Part shown: positions 9,235 to 33,902 of the stretch, one piece after another
How positions within the stretch are numbered: position 1 is the stretch's first letter
Layout: every line of letters begins with the position of its first letter
From: Asaia bogorensis
GTDB taxonomy: Bacteria > Pseudomonadota > Alphaproteobacteria > CACIAM-22H2
DNA: 64,000 bases
Assembly (NCBI GenBank): GCA_945901855.1
Contig: CAMDLT010000020.1
Span: 2,066 to 66,065 of the forward strand
Reading direction: 5' to 3'
Notes under the pieces: generated by a model
Told to the model about the DNA's origin: nothing
Database searches by the model: none
Seen by the model: the letters and a program-made list of their open reading frames with translations, nothing else
Translations under genes and position numbers: made by a program

Positions 9235-10458
9235 GTGCGCATTGTCGATATCGAGACGTTTTTGATGCAAGTCGACGCGCCCAATCTGCGCGGCTGGGCA
9301 TCCGACGGGTCTTTCGGCACGGGCAAAATGAAGGCGGGCCTGGTCGGCACGCGCAATTGGCTGTTCGTCAAAATCCACACCGACGAAGGCATCACGGGCA
9401 TCGGCGAATGCAGCGGCTGGCCGCGCGTAATCCAGACGGCCGTGCAGGACCTGAAATCGATTTTGGTGGGCGAAGACCCGACGCATATCGAACGGCTGTG
9501 GCAGAAGATGATGAGCGCCATCATGGGTCACGGCATGACCGGTACCGTCGGCGCGGGGGCCATGACCGGCATCGACATGGCGCTGTGGGACATCAAGGGC
9601 AAGGCGCTGAACACGCCTGTATGGAATCTTCTTGGCGGAAAAATTCGCGACAAGATCCGCATCTATGCGCACGCCAACGCGCCTGAGGTCGCACTCGATC
9701 TCAAACGGCGCGGCATCAGCGCGATCAAATGCGGCGGCGTATCGGATCCCGTGCGCAAAGTTGCTGCGCTGCGCGAAGCCATCGGGGACGAGATGGATTT
9801 GATGATCGATCTGCATGGGCCGCCGTGGTTGACGCCTGCCGACGCAGCGCAAGTGGCGCGGGCGCTGGAACCCTACCGTCTGATGTTCGTTGAAGATCCG
9901 ATCGCGCCCGAAAATCTCGACGGCTTCCGGCGCATACGCGATGCCGCCAACGTGACTCTGGCAGCGGGAGAGCGTATGGCAACCGTCTACGGGCTGCGCG
10001 ATCTGATCGAAAAAGATCTGGTCGATATCGTGCAGCCCGATACGGGCCGGGCGGGCGGCATCACGCAGATGAAAAAGATCGCCGCAATGGCCGAAGCGCA
10101 TCACATCATGATGGCCCCGCATTCGGGATCGCTCGGGCCCGTCGCGGAATATGCGGCCCTCCATGTGATGGCGGCCATTCCCAACGCGTTGATTTTGGAA
10201 CGTATCGAAGACGATTGGGCGGGGCGTGCGCAAACCGTGGTTCCCCATCCGGTGCAGGAAAACGGCTTCCTCAAAGTGCCGGACGCGCCCGGTCTGGGCG
10301 TGGACATCAACGAGGAATTCGTCAAGCGCTTCCCCAGCGAATGCAACGTGTCGATTCCGGGCGCAATGAAAAGCGGCGCCTATGCCGAGGGCACTTATGA
10401 CGAGAGCGTCTATGTCCAGACGCGTCTCAAACGCGGCGTCTATTTTCCGAAAGGCTAG
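9235..10458 (+). CDS. enolase-superfamily enzyme (mandelate racemase/acid-sugar dehydratase subgroup), substrate unknown
   Basis: 407 aa with a GTG start after GGGAGA. Motifs GIGEC.., ..IDMALWDIKGKALNTPVWNLLGG.., ..DLHG.., ..FVEDP.., ..GER.., ..DIVQPD...GGIT. Confidence 0.85.
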   Translation: MRIVDIETFLMQVDAPNLRGWASDGSFGTGKMKAGLVGTRNWLFVKIHTDEGITGIGECSGWPRVIQTAVQDLKSILVGEDPTHIERLWQKMMSAIMGHGMTGTVGAGAMTGIDMALWDIKGKALNTPVWNLLGGKIRDKIRIYAHANAPEVALDLKRRGISAIKCGGVSDPVRKVAALREAIGDEMDLMIDLHGPPWLTPADAAQVARALEPYRLMFVEDPIAPENLDGFRRIRDAANVTLAAGERMATVYGLRDLIEKDLVDIVQPDTGRAGGITQMKKIAAMAEAHHIMMAPHSGSLGPVAEYAALHVMAAIPNALILERIEDDWAGRAQTVVPHPVQENGFLKVPDAPGLGVDINEEFVKRFPSECNVSIPGAMKSGAYAEGTYDESVYVQTRLKRGVYFPKG

Positions 10459-10461
10459 GCC

Positions 10462-11184
10462 ATGGCATCCACATATTCGGACGCGGTGCGCGAACAGCTG
10501 TTGGGCGTAAGCACCGCGACCTTGTGCACGGCCTTGTTCAAGCGCGGTCTGCGCAACCAGTTTGTCCAGGATGTGCGCCCGCTCGCATCCGATTTGCCCA
10601 ATATGGTCGGGCCTGCCTACACGCTGCGCTACATCCCCGCGCGCGAAGACTTGAACACCATCGCCGTGTTCCAGGATCGCGCGCACCCGCAGCGCAAGGC
10701 GGTCGAAGAATGTCCGCCCGGTTCCGTGCTGGTTATCGACAGTCGCAAGGATGCGCGCGCAGCGTCGGCGGGCGGAATTCTGGTCTCGCGCTTGATGAAG
10801 CGCGGCGTTGCCGGCGTCGTGACCGATGGCGGCTTTCGCGATTCGCCCGAGATCGCGGCGCTGCCTTTTCCTGCCTACCACCATCGTCCGTCCGCGCCGA
10901 CGAACCTGACGCTGCACCAGGCCGTCGATATCGGCCTGCCGATCGCCTGCGGCGATGCGGCCGTGTGGCCAGGCGACATAATTGTCGGCGATCGCGAGGG
11001 CGTGATCGTGATCCCCGCGCACCTCGCAGCGGAGATCGCCGCCGAGGCTGTCGAGATGACGGCGTTCGAGGATTTTGTGTTCGAAAAGATTCTCGAAGGC
11101 CGCTCGATTATCGGTCTCTATCCGCCGACCGACGACATTTCGAAAACCGATTTTGCGGCCTGGCGCATCGCCAAGAACCGCTAG
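10462..11184 (+). CDS. RraA-like / HMG-CHA aldolase family protein
   Basis: 240 aa. The family pattern ..TATLCTAL.., ..GSVLVID.., ..AGGILVSRLMKRGVAGVVTDGGFRD.., ..GDIIVGDREGVIVIP is recognised by eye. It starts 3 nt after the enolase gene stop. Confidence 0.75.
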   Translation: MASTYSDAVREQLLGVSTATLCTALFKRGLRNQFVQDVRPLASDLPNMVGPAYTLRYIPAREDLNTIAVFQDRAHPQRKAVEECPPGSVLVIDSRKDARAASAGGILVSRLMKRGVAGVVTDGGFRDSPEIAALPFPAYHHRPSAPTNLTLHQAVDIGLPIACGDAAVWPGDIIVGDREGVIVIPAHLAAEIAAEAVEMTAFEDFVFEKILEGRSIIGLYPPTDDISKTDFAAWRIAKNR

Positions 11185-25999: not shown

Positions 26000-26413
26000 T
26001 TACGGCGAAGATTTAACCGGTACGGCGCTGAATGCAGGCGCCTCGGAGCACTCGGTCACGCCGCCCAGCGTGCGGATGCATCGATAGCGCGCATTGGGAT
26101 CGATTTTGGCGACCGGAAACTCGGGTTCGTTGAAGCGCGCCATTTGTTCGCAGATCAGACGTCGGTCGCCGGTTAAGAACATACCGTCGCAGCGTCCCGG
26201 CAAAAAATTCGGTCCGACTAAAATCGCGGCGCCAACCACGCCCGGCGTCACGATGCTTTGCACGTAAGGGGCAGCAAACGTGCTGACTTTGTCAGGTACC
26301 TTCGATAGCGGAGGGCTGCCGTGAACCGAAGGCAGTTTGGTGCAAGCCGCCGCGAATAGGGCAGCGCCAGCGACTAAACAAACGATCCGAATGGAGCGAT
26401 TTATCTTCAACAT
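26000..26413 (-). CDS. hypothetical lipoprotein
   Basis: 137 aa. Lipobox-like LFAAAC after a hydrophobic leader, with four further Cys in the mature part. No recognisable family. Confidence 0.55.
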   Translation of the reverse strand: MLKINRSIRIVCLVAGAALFAAACTKLPSVHGSPPLSKVPDKVSTFAAPYVQSIVTPGVVGAAILVGPNFLPGRCDGMFLTGDRRLICEQMARFNEPEFPVAKIDPNARYRCIRTLGGVTECSEAPAFSAVPVKSSP

Positions 26414-26466
26414 TTCTAAAATTTATCCCAAATATATTAATGAATGATGAACATACGCTTGAGATT

Positions 26467-27246
26467 TCAAGATTCCCGTCGATAATCATCCAAATCTCTG
26501 AAGAATCTGGAAAAAGCCGATGCCGGTGTCACACCGGTAGCAGCCTCGAAGCGCACAACTTCTTGGAGCGTAAGCCGCTTCACGGGGGCAAAAAGCGTAT
26601 CGAAGATCGCCAAGAAATCGCTTTTGGCGAACTGAGCAACATCGAGACCATCGCCGATTTGGACATATTTGTTGGGGGCAAGGCCGATCGATGTCTGCTT
26701 GTGCTGCATGATGCGAAAGAACCATTCGCGGCGCGTGTCGAAGCGCTGGAACGATTGCGCAATCCGCACGAGCGTCAACCAGAAAATCGTCTGGGCGCGC
26801 GGATCCGAATAAAACGCGTCCCAACCAAAATCGTCGCCGCCTTTGTCGCGCGTTTCCTCCAGCACTTGCGCACAGGCGGCGTTCCATTCGCCTTCTCTCT
26901 CGCCGACCAATGCCTGGACGAAGAAAAAGAAATTGTGGAGCAGACTGCGGTCGAGCTGCGCGGACGCAAAAAAATCGTCAAGCGGATGCACGATCAAACG
27001 GCCGAACGCATTGACGCGACGATGCTGGTTCTGCGACTGGGCAATTGCCGCAACGATTTGGACGAAGACGGCGCGGTAGAAATTTTCGACTTCGCCGGCG
27101 TTTTTCATCGCATCGCCGATACGCGCGAGCTCGTCGTGGCCGACAGTACCGCCGTTTTTTGCGGCGGTTTCCTGGGCGGTCTTCACGAATGCGTCGAGCA
27201 TCGTGGTTGCCGCATGTCGGATCAGTTGGGGGCCTTTTGAAAACAT
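26467..27246 (-). CDS. hypothetical cytoplasmic protein (259 aa), no recognisable domain
   Basis: Codon third positions on the minus frame are strongly G/C-biased when read by hand, unlike the antisense 266-aa ORF. There is no signal peptide or TM segment. It is aromatic-rich (..HNFFFFVQALVGEREGEW..). Confidence 0.6.
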   Translation of the reverse strand: MFSKGPQLIRHAATTMLDAFVKTAQETAAKNGGTVGHDELARIGDAMKNAGEVENFYRAVFVQIVAAIAQSQNQHRRVNAFGRLIVHPLDDFFASAQLDRSLLHNFFFFVQALVGEREGEWNAACAQVLEETRDKGGDDFGWDAFYSDPRAQTIFWLTLVRIAQSFQRFDTRREWFFRIMQHKQTSIGLAPNKYVQIGDGLDVAQFAKSDFLAIFDTLFAPVKRLTLQEVVRFEAATGVTPASAFSRFFRDLDDYRRES

Positions 27247-27351
27247 TCGGACAAGTCTAGACCACTTGGCGCCTCGGGGGGAAATGCTGCGAGGCTTCTA
27301 TCGGACGGATTTCTTGGCTAACATAAGGTTATCTCGGACGAGGATCAAAAA

Positions 27352-28026
27352 ATGTTGGAAATCAAACCAGTCGAAACGTCGGGTGGAATCGCTGTTCTGG
27401 ATGTCGGCGGCGACAAAGCGGGCCAAGCGACTCTTATTTGGGCCGACGACAATTTCTGCGAGGCGTTCGAAGGCGCGACCGTCGGCGCCGCCCCGTTCGG
27501 TGCGGACGCTGACCCGCAAGTGACGGCGGCCTTGGAGGGGTTGAAGCAGGGGGCTGTGGCACGTTTCGATGCGCCGACGGGCACGCTGTTTGGGCATCGT
27601 CTGGAAAGCGCCATCGGCATTGTCGGGCTGGGCGGCAAGCGTGTGCTGCTGGCGCTGGCAACCGCCCCGCAGATGCTGGGCCACACGGCCGATGCGCGTC
27701 TGGCCGAAACGCTCGACGCCGTGCCGGTCGCCGCGAGCATGATCAAAACGAGCGACGGGACGATTTTGTGGCTCAACGAAAATTTTCGGGAGTTGCTGGA
27801 CGGCAGCGAGTTCGATCTTCTGGGAACGTCGTTGGCCGACCATTTTGTGCTGCCCGGCGTATTTGCAACGCTGATGTCGGCAACAGACGCGATTGCGCCC
27901 TCCACGCCTGTCCCAACGCCCCTAAAGACGCTGTCCGGCATCATGACGCCGGTCGTTGCGACTGCAAAACGTATACGGTTTCGCGGTCACGACGCGGCGC
28001 TGGTGTGCCTGGCCAGCGGGTTTTAG
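27352..28026 (+). CDS. hypothetical protein with two PAS-like repeats, no output domain
   Basis: 224 aa. Two internally similar segments (..ATLIWADDNFCEAFEG.. and ..GTILWLNENFRELLDGSEFDLLGTSLADH..) resemble the N-terminal strands of PAS folds. The G/C third-position bias supports coding. Confidence 0.55.
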   Translation: MLEIKPVETSGGIAVLDVGGDKAGQATLIWADDNFCEAFEGATVGAAPFGADADPQVTAALEGLKQGAVARFDAPTGTLFGHRLESAIGIVGLGGKRVLLALATAPQMLGHTADARLAETLDAVPVAASMIKTSDGTILWLNENFRELLDGSEFDLLGTSLADHFVLPGVFATLMSATDAIAPSTPVPTPLKTLSGIMTPVVATAKRIRFRGHDAALVCLASGF

Positions 28027-28034
28027 CGCGGGTT

Positions 28035-29105
28035 CTAGATCCCGGATTTGCGCGCGGCTTCTTCGAGTTCGTCGATCATCTGCATGCCCGGGACGACCTC
28101 CGAGCGCACGAACTCGAGGCGCTTGTTGGGGCCGCCGCTGGCGGTTGGAAACCGGTCGCGCCATAGCTGCATTTTGACCGACAGCCCGCAGAGCACGCCG
28201 CCGATCGAGCGGTGGTTCGAGAACACCATATCCTTCATGCGGCTGAAGCTGTCGGCGTTGATATCTTTCCAGAAATCGGCGCTCTTGCGGTTAAAAGCTT
28301 CGAACCGGCCCGTCAACGAGATGATCACGCCCGACATCGAATCTCGGGTCTTGTCCAGCATCTGCTTGGACATGCGATCGCCCTTGATCATCTGGTTGTC
28401 GTCGAGCGGCTTGACCCAGTCGAGAAAACTTTGGACCTGGGGCACGACCTTGTCGAGGCACGAGCGGAAATAGGCCAGCGACAAAAACGTATCGCCGTAA
28501 TCTTCGAGGAAGCGCGGAATTTCGGTCAGCGGCACGTTCAGCTTTTGGGACATCATGCGCAGATTCTTGAGCGCATCGTCGCGATTGGGCGCGGTGAGCA
28601 GCTTCATGATGTCCGAAACGTCGTTCACCTCGAAATCCGCCGTGCCGTAGATCTGCTGTATCAACGGATGGGTAAACACCTTCATGTGTTGCGTAAGTTC
28701 TTGGCGTTTGCCTTCCGAAAGCTGCAATTCCTTGTTGACGTCGATATTGAGAGAGAGCGAACGCAGCGCAACGCGCAGCGTGTAGACGTCGAAAGACGGA
28801 ATGGCGCTCAGATTTTGCAGCAGCGGCATGTCCTTGCGCAGTTCGGTCGCACAGCTTTGGAAAACGCTGTGCAATGCGTCGAGGGGAACTTGCGCCGATT
28901 TGTGGCCTTGGTATTTGTAGAGTTCGACAACCGAATCGAGCCGCACGTTCTTTATGAGACGCAGCCTGCGCAACCCCGGCGTTTCGAGCGGGATAATGCT
29001 GAGGGGCAAGATATGAAGCGCATCTTGACCCTCCGCATCGTATTCGGCATTGGCAGCTTCGCCTGAAGCAGGCGTCGGACCATCGATCTTGGTGCTTTGT
29101 TCCAT
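28035..29105 (-). CDS. hypothetical cytoplasmic protein (356 aa), no recognisable domain
   Basis: Long protein-like ORF 77 nt downstream of the CheZ-like gene on the same strand. It has an acidic N-terminus, no TM segment or signal peptide, and is largely helical-looking. Confidence 0.6.
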   Translation of the reverse strand: MEQSTKIDGPTPASGEAANAEYDAEGQDALHILPLSIIPLETPGLRRLRLIKNVRLDSVVELYKYQGHKSAQVPLDALHSVFQSCATELRKDMPLLQNLSAIPSFDVYTLRVALRSLSLNIDVNKELQLSEGKRQELTQHMKVFTHPLIQQIYGTADFEVNDVSDIMKLLTAPNRDDALKNLRMMSQKLNVPLTEIPRFLEDYGDTFLSLAYFRSCLDKVVPQVQSFLDWVKPLDDNQMIKGDRMSKQMLDKTRDSMSGVIISLTGRFEAFNRKSADFWKDINADSFSRMKDMVFSNHRSIGGVLCGLSVKMQLWRDRFPTASGGPNKRLEFVRSEVVPGMQMIDELEEAARKSGI

Positions 29106-29182: not shown

Positions 29183-30076
29183 TCAGTCGAAAAGCTTGTC
29201 AATATCCGCCTGCGACGCCGTCGCGCCAGCAGTGGCGGGCGCGGGAGAGGGCGGCGCTGGCGGCGGCGTAGCTTGTTTGGCAGCTGCCGGGGGCGGGGCG
29301 GGCGCTGGGGCGGGTGTCGGCGGTGCTATGGGTGCGGGTGCGTCAAACCCTGCACCGGCCAACAGCGCGTCGATCTCATCTTGCGTGCGGCCTTGGCCGG
29401 GCATAGCCGGTCCATTCAACAGATGCGCATCGCCGCGGGTGTCGGCATTTGCATCGCGTTTTGCAACGCCGCCCGGCAGATTCTCGGCGCCCCAAATTTC
29501 GACCATCGCGTTGACGCGCTGGTCGATATAGCGAAGCGTGCTGACGACTTTGGAGATGCGCTGGCCGGTAATATCTTGGAACGAGCAGGCCGTAAAAATC
29601 TCGGTTGCTTGGTCGCTCAGCACCTGGCCTGCTTCGGCGCATTCGGTCGGAAGATTTCCGGCAACTTCCATAATGCGCTCGGCTGCATTGAGAATATCCG
29701 AGGTCGCGCGCTCGGTCGAAGCCACGATCATGTCGAGCTCGCTGGTCGCGCTGTTGATGCGGTTGTCGGTAACGGCGAGTTTCGGGTCCTTGTTGTAGAT
29801 CGAAGCGATTTCGGATTTTGCGGCCTGGATATGGGCGGCCATGCTTTGCAATTCGGCACGCAGCACATCGATGCTCTGGGTTTCCTTGGCACTCGACATT
29901 TGCTTGATCGTCCACTCGCGGAACGAGGCGGCGATGCGCCGCGCTTCGTCGAGCGCCACTACGCGCGAGCGCACGTCGCGGGCGCGCAAGAAGGCGCGGC
30001 CGCGCGTGCTGTTCAACAGCGCGTCCTCGATGGCGAAATATTCTTCGTCCGAAAGTTCGATCTTCGTCATTGGCAA
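29183..30076 (-). CDS. cheZ: CheZ-family phospho-aspartate phosphatase with C-terminal Pro/Ala-rich extension
   Basis: 297 aa. ..ACSFQDITGQRISKV.. matches the CheZ catalytic signature (E. coli AQDFQDLTGQVIKRM). ..LLNGP.. is also conserved. ..QDEIDALLAGAGFD resembles the E. coli C-terminal CheY-binding peptide QDQVDDLLDSLGF. Confidence 0.8.
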   Translation of the reverse strand: MPMTKIELSDEEYFAIEDALLNSTRGRAFLRARDVRSRVVALDEARRIAASFREWTIKQMSSAKETQSIDVLRAELQSMAAHIQAAKSEIASIYNKDPKLAVTDNRINSATSELDMIVASTERATSDILNAAERIMEVAGNLPTECAEAGQVLSDQATEIFTACSFQDITGQRISKVVSTLRYIDQRVNAMVEIWGAENLPGGVAKRDANADTRGDAHLLNGPAMPGQGRTQDEIDALLAGAGFDAPAPIAPPTPAPAPAPPPAAAKQATPPPAPPSPAPATAGATASQADIDKLFD

Positions 30077-30134: not shown

Positions 30135-31277
30135 TTAAAGTTTGCCCTCGATGGCGGCTCTGAAAATTCGCTCAAGGTCGCCATGCTCGACTTTGCAGGG
30201 ATTGCCGCCTGCCGACGGATCGGCCGCCGCCATCGCCCCGATTTCGGCCGCCCGCGACGTATCGATCCCCAGCATGGCGAGCGTGGGGGGAATTTTCAAC
30301 AGGTCGCGAAACTGCAAGACCCAAGCAAAGACCGTATCGAAATCGGCGCGCGGCAAATCGAGGGAACGCGACAAGTTCGGCATACGCGCGGCGATCGCAG
30401 CGCGATTGTGGCGCATGACATAAGGCAGCAAAATAGCGTTGGTCAGACCGTGATGCGTGTCGTAGACGGCACCGATCGGATGGGCAAGCGCGTGGACGGC
30501 GCCAAGCCCCTTTTGGAAGGCGACGGCACCCATGCTGGCGGCGGCCAGCATCTGCGCGCGCGCTTCGATGTCGGCGCCGTTGGCGACAGCGCGTGGCAGA
30601 AACTCTTTCACCAGGCGCATGCCTTCGAGCGCGATGCCATCGGCCATGGGATGGAATCCGGGCGCGCAATAGGCCTCGAAGCAATGCACGAACGCGTCGA
30701 CGCCCGTCGCGGCCGTCATATGCGCAGGCAGGCCAATGCTCAGTTCCGGATCGGCGATCACGATGCCGGGCATCATTTGTGGGTGAAAAATGATTTTTTT
30801 GACGTGCGCCGCCTCGTCGGTAATGACCGAAGCACGTCCGACTTCGGAGCCCGTGCCGGCGGTTGTCGGCACCGCGACGACCGGCACCATCGCGGCCGGA
30901 TCGACGCGCTTGAAATTATCGCCGACATCCTCGAAGTCCCAGAGCGGCCGCGTCTGGCGGGCCATCAGCGCGATGGCCTTCGCCGCATCGAGGCCCGATC
31001 CGCCGCCAAACGCGATAACGCCGTCATGCGCGCCCGCGCGCAAGGCCGCGACGCCGTCGGCAACGTTGGTACCCGTCGGGTTGCCGCGGACTTTGGCAAA
31101 AAGCGTCGCGCCCGAGAGGGCCAGCGCTTTTGCTACCATCGGCGTCGATGCAAGTCCTGCATCCGTGACCAGCAGCGCATTGGCAATGTGCAGGCGCTTG
31201 AGCGCTGCGGGCAATTCGTCCAACCGACCTGGCCCCGACCAGATTGTCGTGGGGTAGTTCCAATTGCCCTTTACCAT
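30135..31277 (-). CDS. iron-containing (group III) alcohol dehydrogenase
   Basis: 380 aa. Motif GGGSGLDAAKAI and metal-ligand His pattern (..AHPIGAVYDTHHG..). Confidence 0.85.
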   Translation of the reverse strand: MVKGNWNYPTTIWSGPGRLDELPAALKRLHIANALLVTDAGLASTPMVAKALALSGATLFAKVRGNPTGTNVADGVAALRAGAHDGVIAFGGGSGLDAAKAIALMARQTRPLWDFEDVGDNFKRVDPAAMVPVVAVPTTAGTGSEVGRASVITDEAAHVKKIIFHPQMMPGIVIADPELSIGLPAHMTAATGVDAFVHCFEAYCAPGFHPMADGIALEGMRLVKEFLPRAVANGADIEARAQMLAAASMGAVAFQKGLGAVHALAHPIGAVYDTHHGLTNAILLPYVMRHNRAAIAARMPNLSRSLDLPRADFDTVFAWVLQFRDLLKIPPTLAMLGIDTSRAAEIGAMAAADPSAGGNPCKVEHGDLERIFRAAIEGKL

Positions 31278-31291
31278 CGCAGCCGCCCGCC

Positions 31292-32722
31292 TCAGATGAT
31301 TTCGAAATAGCGCTGCAGCTGCCAGTCGCTGATCGCTTTATTCGCCTCACGCTGTTCCCAGTCGCGGCTGGCGGCATAATGCGCGACGAATGGTTCGCCG
31401 AACAGGTCTTTGGCGACCGACGAGGCGGCCAATCGCGTCGCAGCTTCGCCCAACGTGCGCGGCAACTGCAATTCGGGCGGCGGAACCAGATCGTAGGCGT
31501 TGCCGACGACCGGGGCCGTCGGTTCGATCTTGTGCTCGATACCCCACAGTCCGGACCCAAGGGCCGCAGCAAGTGCGATGTAGGGATTGATATCGGCCGC
31601 GGCGACCCGGTATTCGACGCGCTGCGACTTCGGCGCGCCGGGGATTGCGCGTAGCGCCGTGGTGCGATTGTCGATGCCCCACAGCGCCGCTGTCGGGGCC
31701 CAGAAACCGGGGACAAGTCGCGTGTAGGAATTTACCGTGCAGGCCACCATGGCGAGCAACTCGGGCATCAGCTTTTGCTGGCCGCCGATGAAGTGGCGCA
31801 TCGTATCTGAAATGCCATGCGGCTTGGTTTCGTCGTGAAAGACGGGCCCACCGGCCGCGTTCTGCAGCGACAAATGCAGATGGCCCGACTGGCCCGGCCA
31901 GTCGTGCGACCATTTCGCCATGAATGTTGCCATACGATTTTGGCGTTGGGCGAAAACCTTGGCGAAGGTTTTGAACAAAGCGGCTTTGTCTGCGGCGGCG
32001 ACGATATCGTCGTAGAGCAGCGCCGCCTCGAGCACGCCCGCGCCCGTCTCGGTGTGCAGGCCTTCGATCGGCACGTCCATCGCGCGCATCGTGTCGAGCA
32101 GCGCGTGATAGAATTCCGCATGCACGGAACTGCGCAGCATCGAATAGCCAAAAGACCCGGGCGTAAGAGTCTTCAGGCCGCGATAGTTTTTCTCGCGCAC
32201 CGATACGGGCGTTTCCTCGAACACAAAGAATTCGAATTCCGCGGCTGCTTTGGCAGCAAGCCCCATGTCGGCCGCGCGCTGGACGACGCGCCGCAACGTG
32301 CCGCGCGGACAAACGGTTTCAGCCCGACCCGCAAATTCGGCCAGAAAAAGCAAGGTTGACGGCTCGAACGGGACCGCGCGGCAAGTCTCGGGCAGCACGC
32401 GAACCGGCGCGTCGGGATAGGCGGTGTGCCAGCCCGTGTATGTCGCGCAATCGTAAAGCTGGTCGTTCGAATCCCAGCCAAGCACAACGTCGCAAAATCC
32501 GAATCCGGTCTGCAGCACGGAGCGGAATTTCTCGCGCGACAGATATTTGCCGCGCATGACTCCGTCGATATCGAACAGACCGACTTTCACATTGTCGATT
32601 TTGCGCGCGTCCAGCAGGGCGGCGGCTTGTTCGGCAGTTTTGACGTCGCGGGGTCCGGTTGCGGGCTCCCGGTCGCCGGCCAGATCAGGCGGCACGGCGC
32701 AGATCCAGTCGGCTCCAGACAT
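31292..32722 (-). CDS. glutamine synthetase-family ligase (gamma-glutamyl-amine synthetase, PuuA/IpuC-like)
   Basis: About 476 aa. GS catalytic-domain collinearity (..[13 protein letters not shown].., ..[17 protein letters not shown].., ..NSYTRL.., ..WG.DNRT.ALR.., ..R.EYR....D.NPY..). The start is uncertain (32740, 32722 or GTG 32695), and all three options overlap the hemA 3' end. Confidence 0.8.
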
Positions 32723-33902
32723 CAACCAGCGCCTCGACAAGCTGATCCATCAGCCCATCGTCGTGGAAGGGGGTGGCGGTCAAACGCAGCCGTTGCGTGC
32801 CGCGCGGCACGGTCGGGAAATTGATCGGCTGGACATAGATCGATTTTCGCATCAGCAGTTCGTCGCTCGCCTGTTTGGCGAGGCGCGCGTCGCCGACGAG
32901 CAACGGCACGATGTGCGTGGCCGACGGCATCACCGGCAGTCCTGCTTGGACCAGCAACCGCTTGAGGCGTTCGGCGCGTTCGGCCAGTTTGGCGCGCGCG
33001 GCTTGGTCGCTTTTGAGATGGCGGATGGCGGCACGCGCACCGGCTGCCACGACCGGCGGCATCGAGCTCGAGAAAATGAAGCCGGGGGCCGTGCTGCGGA
33101 CAGCATCGCACAAAGCCGTCGAAGCCGCGATATAGCCGCCGACCACGCCAAAGCCCTTGGCGAGCGTGCCTTGCACAATGTCGAGGCGCGCTTGCGCGCC
33201 ATCGCGTTCGGCAATGCCGGCGCCGCGCGCGCCGTAAAGACCGACCGCATGCACTTCGTCGAGATACGTCATCGCATCGTATTTTTCGGCGAGGTCGCAA
33301 AACGCGTGGATCGGCGAAACGTCGCCGTCCATCGAATAGACGCTCTCGAACGCGATCAGCTTTGGGCGCGACGGTTCGATCGATTGGAGCTGGGCTTCGA
33401 GATCGGCCGCATCGTTGTGGCGAAAGACGAGTTTGTCCGCGCCCGAATGGCGAATGCCTTCGATCATCGAGGCGTGGTTGAGCGCATCGGACAAGATCAC
33501 GACGCCTGGCAGCAGCCGCCCGATCGCCGACAAAGCCGCCTCGTTGGCGTTGTAGCCGGAACTGAACACCAAGGCCGCCGGCTTGGCATGCAGATCGGCC
33601 AGTTCGCGCTCGAGCAAAACATGCTGGTGGTTGGTACCGGAGATGTTGCGCGTTCCGCCCGCACCGGCCCCGTTCGCGACGAGCGCCGCCTGCATGGCGG
33701 CAAGCGTGTCGGGATGCTGGCCCATGCCCAGATAGTCGTTCGAGCACCATACGACGATGTCGCGCGGTCCCTCCGGCGAATGCCAAGTCGCATGCGGAAA
33801 GGCGCCGCATTTGCGCTCGAGATCCGCAAACACGCGGTAGCGGCCTTCGGCCTTCAAAGCGCCGATGGTGTCGGAAAAATAGCGTTCATAGTCGCGTCGC
33901 AT
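32685..33902 (-). CDS. hemA: 5-aminolevulinate synthase
   Basis: 405 aa. Classic ALAS N-terminus (..[17 protein letters not shown]......[15 protein letters not shown]..) and PLP-Lys region ..[13 protein letters not shown].., collinear with alphaproteobacterial HemA. Confidence 0.9.

Follow-up and report, generated by a model that had tools for sequence, protein, structure and literature searches.

How many CheY-binding peptides does a CheZ phosphatase carry, and what would a second one do? CheZ is the textbook phosphatase that captures its substrate via one tethered peptide. The question is raised by a cheZ gene in a stretch of 64,000 nucleotides from a contig of Asaia bogorensis (CAMDLT010000020.1), the whole of which was analyzed and is called the 64-kb window below. 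E. coli CheZ stops at its CheY-binding peptide, whereas the chain encoded here continues through a spacer and ends in a second, similar peptide. Our answer, which we regard as probable, is that the protein is a CheZ-family phosphatase of phosphorylated CheY (CheY-P) with multivalent, tethered CheY-docking peptides. All coordinates are those of the 64-kb window unless a locus is named; labels beginning with L denote loci from relatives, and those beginning with P denote homologous proteins.

A CheZ protein that continues beyond its first peptide

The cheZ open reading frame (ORF) occupies positions 29183..30076 of the minus strand, as do all cheZ features given here, with its stop codon at 29183-29185. 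Read from the TTG at 30076, as in the automatic ORF call, it codes for 297 amino acids. A candidate start ATG at 30070 (codon 3) gives 295 amino acids. Because GCAGG is located 6 nucleotides upstream of this ATG, and because the closest homologue (P0001, 98% identical) is also 295 amino acids long, the ATG is probably the true start and the TTG call is probably wrong.

The first-pass annotation, which was made from the sequence without database searches, had called the product a CheZ homologue, and the family searches bore this out. The Pfam CheZ model (PF04344) matched residues 146-244 with a score of 59 bits (E=8e-16) against a gathering cut-off of 30.7, and this match ended at the first of the two tail peptides, which we call motif 1. 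When the PDB was searched with phmmer, the sole match was E. coli CheZ (1KMI). In the resulting alignment FQDITGQ was paired with FQDLTGQ, LLNGP with LLNGP, and TQDEIDALLAGAGF with SQDQVDDLLDSLGF (residues 201-214 of E. coli CheZ), and the alignment ended at residue 244. Thus, by its position motif 1 corresponds to the C-terminal helix of E. coli CheZ, in agreement with the earlier suggestion that the first peptide mirrors it. The NCBIfam equivalogs for enteric CheZ were missed by far (NF008368, 42.1 bits versus 257; NF041271, 17.7 versus 350). These scores far under the cut-off indicate that the window CheZ represents a divergent subfamily and is not an equivalog of E. coli CheZ.

The strings on which the annotation had relied were all found in the protein, namely SFQDITGQ (residues 165-172), LLNGP (219-223), TQDEIDALLAGAGFD (231-245), and the terminal SQADIDKLFD (288-297). 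The first of them lies in ACSFQDITGQ (residues 163-172, 29561..29590), which joins the AXXFQ motif described for CheZ (PMC7750401) to the catalytic DxxxQ; D168 and Q172 correspond to D143 and Q147 of E. coli CheZ. In an alignment of 50 sequences, F166, Q167, D168, T170, G171, and Q172 were invariant, that is, the catalytic Asp and Gln are intact. LLNGP (29408..29422) contains the strictly conserved Gly-Pro of the disordered CheZ linker, a functionally important element (G188-P189 in E. coli-type CheZ; bioRxiv 10.1101/607010). The residues L219-P223 were invariant in the same alignment, and so were Q232 and D236 in motif 1 and Q289, D293, and F296 in the terminal peptide, motif 2. At the level of sequence these results show that the gene encodes a CheZ-family protein with intact catalytic and linker signatures, for which phosphatase activity is predicted.

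The layout was further described with an AlphaFold2 (AF2) model of the monomer, whose overall predicted local distance difference test score (pLDDT) was 70.9. In the model a long N-terminal helix (residues 24-94, 29795..30007) is followed by a helical hairpin (residues 101-140 and 144-195, 29492..29776), which is presumed to be half of a four-helix-bundle dimer, and then by a disordered stretch. Motif 1, TQDEIDALLAGAGF (residues 231-244, 29345..29386), begins 7 residues past the invariant LLNGP and is the GP-proximal, EIDAL-type peptide (TQDEIDALL, residues 231-239). The disordered Pro/Ala-rich spacer occupies residues 245-287 (29216..29344). The linker had been put at about 45 residues; it is present, and its exact length is 43 amino acids, of which 17 are Pro and 16 are Ala, with a pLDDT below 50. 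Motif 2, SQADIDKLFD (residues 288-297, 29186..29215), is a second EIDAL-like peptide and is strictly C-terminal. Short helices were predicted at residues 232-241 in motif 1 and at residues 289-295 in motif 2 (block pLDDT 79).

CheZ of E. coli and Salmonella (1KMI) shares with this protein the Asp and Gln of FQD(I/L)TGQ, the helical hairpin, the disordered linker with LLNGP, and, some 7-11 residues past the GP, an amphipathic peptide of the form SQxx(I/V)DxLL. However, E. coli CheZ ends at that peptide with 214 amino acids, and the window CheZ adds the 43-residue spacer and the second peptide. In the window protein the N-terminal helix is also longer and the hairpin shorter than in E. coli CheZ, and the protein lacks the CheA-short-binding feature D(D/E)WF, which has been reported to be absent from alphaproteobacterial CheZ (PMC7750401). 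The CheZ of Azorhizobium caulinodans, which has been characterized experimentally (236 amino acids, a long N-terminal helix, and a single C-helix), and CheZ2, a short paralogue in Azospirillum, share with the window CheZ the long N-terminal helix, the short hairpin, the ACxFQ-DxxxQ block, and a C-terminal helix of the SQADIDALF type (PMC7750401). The occurrence of CheZ in an alphaproteobacterium had been thought noteworthy in itself, but it was already published in that work.

Conservation and spread of the tail peptides

We described the tail peptides with the consensus SQx(E/D)(I/V)DxL(L/F), of which the Asp would pair with K119 of CheY. When the 64-kb window was translated in six frames, the motif expression had two matches, and both were in the CheZ tail. 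When six-frame ORFs of at least 80 amino acids from 87 sequences (3.06 million codons) were searched, 184 of 185 matches fell in CheZ ORFs, and the remaining one was a CheZ tail whose frame had shifted within a run of poly-Pro (L012). This restriction to CheZ tails is more than a matter of chance.

A word-indexed search gave 1275 homologues, and those with names were Rhodospirillales (Telmatospirillum, Tagaea, Azospirillum, and Radicibacter). Among the 120 best of the 1275, at least two copies of the motif followed LLNGP in 118 (two copies in 102, three in 1, four in 11, and five in 4). The last copy was at most 2 residues from the C-terminus in 117 of these 120, and the first and last copies were 22-150 residues apart. 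The annotation had supposed that a tethered second peptide would be an unusual architecture. On the contrary, it is the norm of the subfamily, and the window cheZ is, as judged by its sequence, an ordinary member of it.

Conservation was expressed as the frequency of the commonest residue in each column for 50 homologues. The value was 1.00 for LLNGP, 0.86 for motif 2, 0.78 for motif 1, 0.75 for the hairpin, and 0.48 for the spacer. That is, motif 2 ranks second to LLNGP and above the catalytic hairpin, and the terminal DIDKLFD is conserved. The Q and D of the motif were invariant in both copies, and the I, L, and F were invariant or nearly so; in motif 2, the Q, D, and F were unchanged across sequences that are just 45% identical overall. 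The spacer ranged from 21 to 145 amino acids in length and took up 197 alignment columns for the 43 reference residues. In Azospirillum, two internal repeat units differed at 5 of 48 nucleotides, and every one of these differences was synonymous. We take these comparisons of sequences to show that both peptides are under strong purifying selection and that the spacer varies freely.

The same family was then described by a search that was blind to the tail, in which core residues 1-224 were compared with 1.84 billion representatives at 50% identity. Among the 150 listed of the 2754 matches, there were single-peptide short forms (e.g. ...LLNGPQLENRGISQDDIDKLFG), tails with two peptides on Pro/Ala spacers, tails with four to eight tandem peptides (8 in P0131 and 7 in P0146), and acidic tails of 200-440 residues with a degenerate ...ALF(S/T) end. 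In a core-only neighbour-joining tree of 132 complete representatives, about 124 had extended tails and the 8 short forms were scattered. Fitch parsimony placed an extended tail at the root with 7 losses, a result that is indicative only, the tree being a midpoint-rooted distance tree. In 73 complete tails from 80 named genomes, the number of strict copies was zero in 4 tails, one in 14, two in 42, four in 6, five in 3, six in 3, and seven in 1.

This CheZ type is present in the Rhodospirillales Tagaea, Azospirillum, Niveispirillum, Nitrospirillum, Skermanella, Arenibaculum, and Stellaceae, and beyond this order in Micropepsaceae, in Parvibaculaceae and Tepidicaulis, and in Hyphomicrobiales (Cohaesibacter and Roseibium). 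Azospirillum and its relatives have 4-8 copies per CheZ. Their tails are made of 4-8 near-identical SQ(A/S)DIDS(L/M)FD(S/A)PAPA units and a distinct terminal LDQ(S/A)AIDALFG, and in the corresponding loci cheY is followed by the multi-peptide cheZ (L003 8001-9119; also L013, L030, L035, and L055; proteins P0131 and P0146).

In Azospirillum proper, the multi-peptide cheZ is directly followed by the second, single-peptide cheZ that encodes CheZ2 (L003 9321-10058), and a CheZ2 paralogue was found at the same locus in 15 loci. CheZ2 belongs to a short sister subfamily with exactly one terminal peptide in all 120 of its 120 members. These proteins differ from the window CheZ in this single peptide and in their length of 195-267 amino acids, and the Azospirillum paralogue is about 35% identical to the window CheZ. 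By BLASTP, its terminal SQADIDALFG was colinear with motif 1, and a second high-scoring segment pair placed the same peptide against motif 2, where 8 of 9 residues matched. Because of this match, motif 2 has the look of a genuine C-terminal peptide of CheZ. The CheZ2 peptide sits like motif 1 and reads like motif 2, and thus there is no simple answer to which copy is the extra one. The proposal that motif 2 is ancestral and motif 1 was inserted was considered and not retained: by position, motif 1 would be the counterpart of the E. coli peptide, and by sequence and terminal location, motif 2 would be.

In a full-text literature search, we found no description of a CheZ with repeated C-terminal peptides, which is no proof of absence. 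The multi-peptide CheZ tail is widespread in sequence databases and apparently undescribed.

The material between the peptides showed some features of its own. Uninterrupted runs of about 25-30 Pro occur in the CheZ spacers of L031, L063, and L081 (Niveispirillum/AAP38) and of L043 (Skermanella); such tracts should need elongation factor P (EF-P) for translation and would be expected to form rigid polyproline II (PPII) rods. In Nitrospirillum sp. BR 11164 (L012, about 10025-10870), the reading frame is lost in a repeat that codes for poly-Pro, and the terminal SQSAVDDMFP is in another frame. Either the sequence is in error here or the GC-rich repeat has undergone a slippage-type frameshift. 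Many relatives among the Hyphomicrobiales and marine bacteria have D/E-rich CheZ tails of 200-440 residues that end in ...(E/Q)xxALF(S/T) (L071, L077, L078, and L082-L084; P0159-P0220, of which P0188 has 667 amino acids). In composition these acidic tails resemble the acidic protein ChePep, the partner of H. pylori CheZ.

Proposed CheY docking and the alternatives to it

What could the two peptides bind? CheY is known to bind the N-terminal EIDAL motif of FliM (PMC6946799). In that complex, FliM D12 (the D of EID) is linked to K119 of CheY through a salt bridge, and the surface concerned also includes K91 and Y106 (10.1101/781468). Motif 1 contains EIDAL literally, and motif 2 has the variant DIDKL. 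The conserved positions of the motif (Q, I/V, D, L, and L/F) map onto Q8, I11, D12, L14, and L15 of FliM_N. On the side of the receiver, 37 of 80 genomic loci have a cheY directly upstream of the gene for this CheZ type, and the gap between the two has a median of 33 nucleotides. The residues D12, D13, D57, T87, K91, Y106, K109, and K119 are kept in 38 of 38 CheYs adjacent to this CheZ type, and Azospirillum CheY aligns with enteric CheY without a gap (E=7e-43). The first and last motifs co-vary weakly at position +4 (Fisher p=0.006, uncorrected for phylogeny), which may lean slightly towards a partner shared by both.

The tail peptides and the N-terminal EIDAL peptide of FliM and of B. subtilis FliY are the same short linear motif, and the equivalent of FliM D12 is invariant in the window CheZ motifs. 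FliY joins a tethered EIDAL peptide and a CheY-P phosphatase domain in one protein (PMC12826062). However, the motif of FliM and FliY is N-terminal, occurs once, and is carried by a motor protein, whereas here it is C-terminal, present in 2-8 copies, and carried by a phosphatase of the CheZ type (that of FliY is of the CheC type). A precedent for a duplicated docking unit for CheY is the P2 domain of CheA, which is duplicated in Borreliales (PMC10542144). Both CheA P2 and the C-terminal pentapeptide tether of receptors for CheR/CheB follow the same principle, in which a binding unit sits on a flexible linker and its partner is thereby concentrated locally. Nevertheless, P2 is a folded domain on a kinase and the pentapeptide brings enzymes to receptors, and neither is a repeated peptide on a phosphatase. 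As to the spacer, the E2 component of 2-oxo-acid dehydrogenases has Ala/Pro-rich, extended, semi-flexible "swinging arm" linkers, on which a small unit for binding or carrying travels from site to site. The analogy extends only to what the spacer may do physically, as E2 is of an unrelated family and carries another cargo.

We propose the following mechanism. Classical CheZ has one CheY-docking helix at its C-terminus, and in this alphaproteobacterial subfamily that helix would have been multiplied. Motif 1, at the canonical distance, would deliver bound CheY-P to the catalytic Asp and Gln on the helical bundle, as in E. coli. On the alpha4-beta5-alpha5 face of CheY-P, where the EIDAL peptide of FliM binds, each of the two peptides would form a short amphipathic helix, and a CheZ dimer would show four docking sites, or up to 16 in the eight-copy relatives. 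The distal peptide may act as an extended capture arm on the Pro/Ala spacer, for which we estimate a contour length of about 13-16 nm. Such an arm would capture CheY-P at a higher rate, concentrate it locally, add avidity, compete with FliM for CheY-P, and pass the substrate to the proximal site. We infer from the motif both the binding of CheY-P by the terminal peptide and these kinetic consequences. A bolder form of the proposal is that the whole subfamily works as a multivalent CheY-P "antenna". Its two to eight peptides, which would mimic that of FliM and are spaced by Pro/Ala, poly-Pro, or acidic stretches, would keep CheY-P away from the motor and line it up for hydrolysis. Evolution could then tune the gain, speed, and spatial reach of signal termination through the number of copies and the length of the spacer, and the strictly C-terminal copy, ...IDxLF-COOH, may serve another purpose, such as a different CheY paralogue or binding mode. 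We consider this form possible, though on the whole rather unlikely.

Several results weigh against this proposal of docking by both peptides. With CheY, CheA, and CheW of E. coli and Azospirillum as queries, tblastn found nothing in the 64-kb window. In the closest, Tagaea-like clade, the only receiver domain near cheZ is a CheA-fused one without equivalents of Y106 and K119; in L004 it has F at the position of Y106 and, in an ungapped extension beyond the BLAST alignment, L at that of K119. The two copies also keep a separate consensus. Among 105 distinct pairs, the residue at +8 of the terminal copy was F in 103, and that of the proximal copy was L 60 times, F 35 times, and M 8 times, which could mean that the two motifs have different partners or binding modes and are not simply redundant. 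Finally, when the model of the CheZ monomer was compared with the PDB by Foldseek, generic helical hairpins were obtained (best E=1.2) and 1KMI was not recovered, a result that says nothing about family membership.

The lasting asymmetry of the first and last copies at +8, together with K/R at +6, which is commoner in the terminal copy than in the proximal one, is an observation in favour of an alternative in which the peptides serve different partners. Motif 1 would then hold the motor CheY-P for catalysis, and the terminal ...IDxLF-COOH would bind another receiver (a CheY paralogue, CheV, or one fused to CheA), localizing CheZ at the array or widening its substrate range. It agrees with this alternative that cheZ of the closest clade adjoins an operon of cheA-REC and cheW, a separate cheY being absent from the surrounding 10 kb, and that Azospirillum-type genomes have two CheZ paralogues (15 loci). 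These genomes also carry several CheYs. The CheZ of H. pylori reportedly acts on CheY, CheAY2, and CheV2, as Lertsethtakarn and Ottemann are said to have described in 2010. On the other hand, the CheA-fused receiver of L004 lacks the Lys that pairs with the invariant Asp of the motif, and we downgraded this receiver as a target of the terminal peptide for want of its Y106 and K119 equivalents. Both types of motif occur in the same protein where cheY is adjacent, and the internal SQADIDSLFD of Azospirillum is close to the proximal SQADVDSMFD, which argues for one partner. Moreover, A. caulinodans CheZ is localized via its N-terminal regions, independently of CheA (PMC7750401). Taken together, we think that different partners for the two peptides are unlikely.

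It is more improbable still that the terminal peptide is a localization or regulatory tag for a partner that is not a receiver, such as FlhG, a motor or polar component, or p356, the product of the gene downstream of cheZ. FlhG, the flagellar-number ATPase, also binds the EIDAL motifs of FliM and FliY. EIDAL-like motifs occur in several flagellar proteins (PMC6946799), and in the clade of the window the gene for p356 keeps its place immediately after cheZ. However, p356 adjoins cheZ in the window, L001, and L004-L008 and in none of the other 76 genomic loci, and its homologues in Azospirillum and Aerophototrophica are in unrelated gene contexts. The terminal motif is conserved far past the clade with this linkage, and its nearest sequence relatives are CheZ C-terminal peptides. 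The last alternative, that the extension is low-complexity drift and the likeness of its end to a CheY peptide has no function, is hardly credible. The Pro/Ala spacer is indeed not conserved and is highly variable in length, and its DNA is GC-rich, repetitive, and prone to slippage, as in the frameshifted L012. Nevertheless, the terminal peptide is not drift, because it is conserved so much better than the spacer with its wide range of lengths. The 9-10 terminal residues exceed even the catalytic hairpin in conservation, with Q, D, and F invariant at 45% overall identity; repeat copies differ only synonymously, and the motif is absent from non-CheZ ORFs. We think that drift is effectively refuted by these conservation data, as far as sequences can do so. 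Docking of CheY by both peptides is the reading that we retain.

The neighbourhood of cheZ and the meaning of the tail

The gene for p356 (28035..29105, minus strand) begins 78 nucleotides downstream of cheZ and is possibly co-transcribed with it, but its membership in the system is uncertain. The protein of 356 amino acids is conserved and without a family: no match was found in Pfam, NCBIfam, or the PDB, and about 980 homologues in Rhodospirillales, annotated as "hypothetical", have 76 invariant columns and motifs such as GGVLCGL and TGRF. Its AF2 model is confident (pLDDT 82.5, predicted template modelling score 0.79) and consists of a small beta unit and then long helices, for which a fold search gave nothing beyond generic helical bundles. 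The next gene, p224 (27352..28026, plus strand), is convergent with cheZ-p356. Its product of 224 amino acids matched PAS_4 at E=7e-4, under the cut-off, and is thus a weakly PAS-like protein with no assigned family.

The metagenome contig L001 has a cheZ that is 98% identical to that of the window, with the same neighbours. The Tagaea-like metagenome-assembled genomes L004-L008 and L087 have 70-78% identity and share the upstream synteny (Opp transporter, aminotransferase, 5-aminolevulinate synthase (ALAS), a glutamine-synthetase-like gene, Fe-dependent alcohol dehydrogenase, cheZ, and p356). Beside cheZ they have a convergent operon of cheA-REC, cheW, and p224, the last of which is the final gene in Tagaea (L087 12036-12710); p224 may be a chemotaxis accessory protein, as this position suggests. 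Compared with the syntenic Tagaea region (L087 12776-15989), the window (about 26400-27350) and L001 have kept p224, and cheW and cheA-REC are absent. The absence of these two genes beside p224 makes cheZ an orphan in the 64 kb.

Upstream of cheZ on the same strand (30135-33902, minus strand) are genes for an ALAS-type aminotransferase of 405 amino acids, a glutamine-synthetase-C-domain protein, and an Fe-dependent alcohol dehydrogenase. This block is conserved with Tagaea, which has an additional aldehyde dehydrogenase, and the ALAS and glutamine-synthetase-like ORFs as called overlap by about 56 nucleotides. Rfam and tRNA scans of the 64-kb window gave no tRNA, tmRNA, or Rfam family at the gathering threshold, and promoter and terminator scans around cheZ gave nothing above the shuffled background.

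As to the meaning of the tail, the number of peptides (1, 2, or 4-8) and the tether (21 to more than 400 residues, of differing chemistry) vary over a constant core and peptide. This natural series of tails offers a ready test of how avidity, tether length, and competition with the motor peptide act in signal termination. Current annotation misses the feature: these proteins go by the names "CheZ" or "hypothetical", and what Pfam matches in them ends at the first peptide. The matter is relevant to Azospirillum, a model of multi-CheY chemotaxis, in which a CheZ with many peptides is encoded next to one with a single peptide. If the antenna proposal were true, the tails would represent a previously unrecognized layer of chemotaxis tuning.

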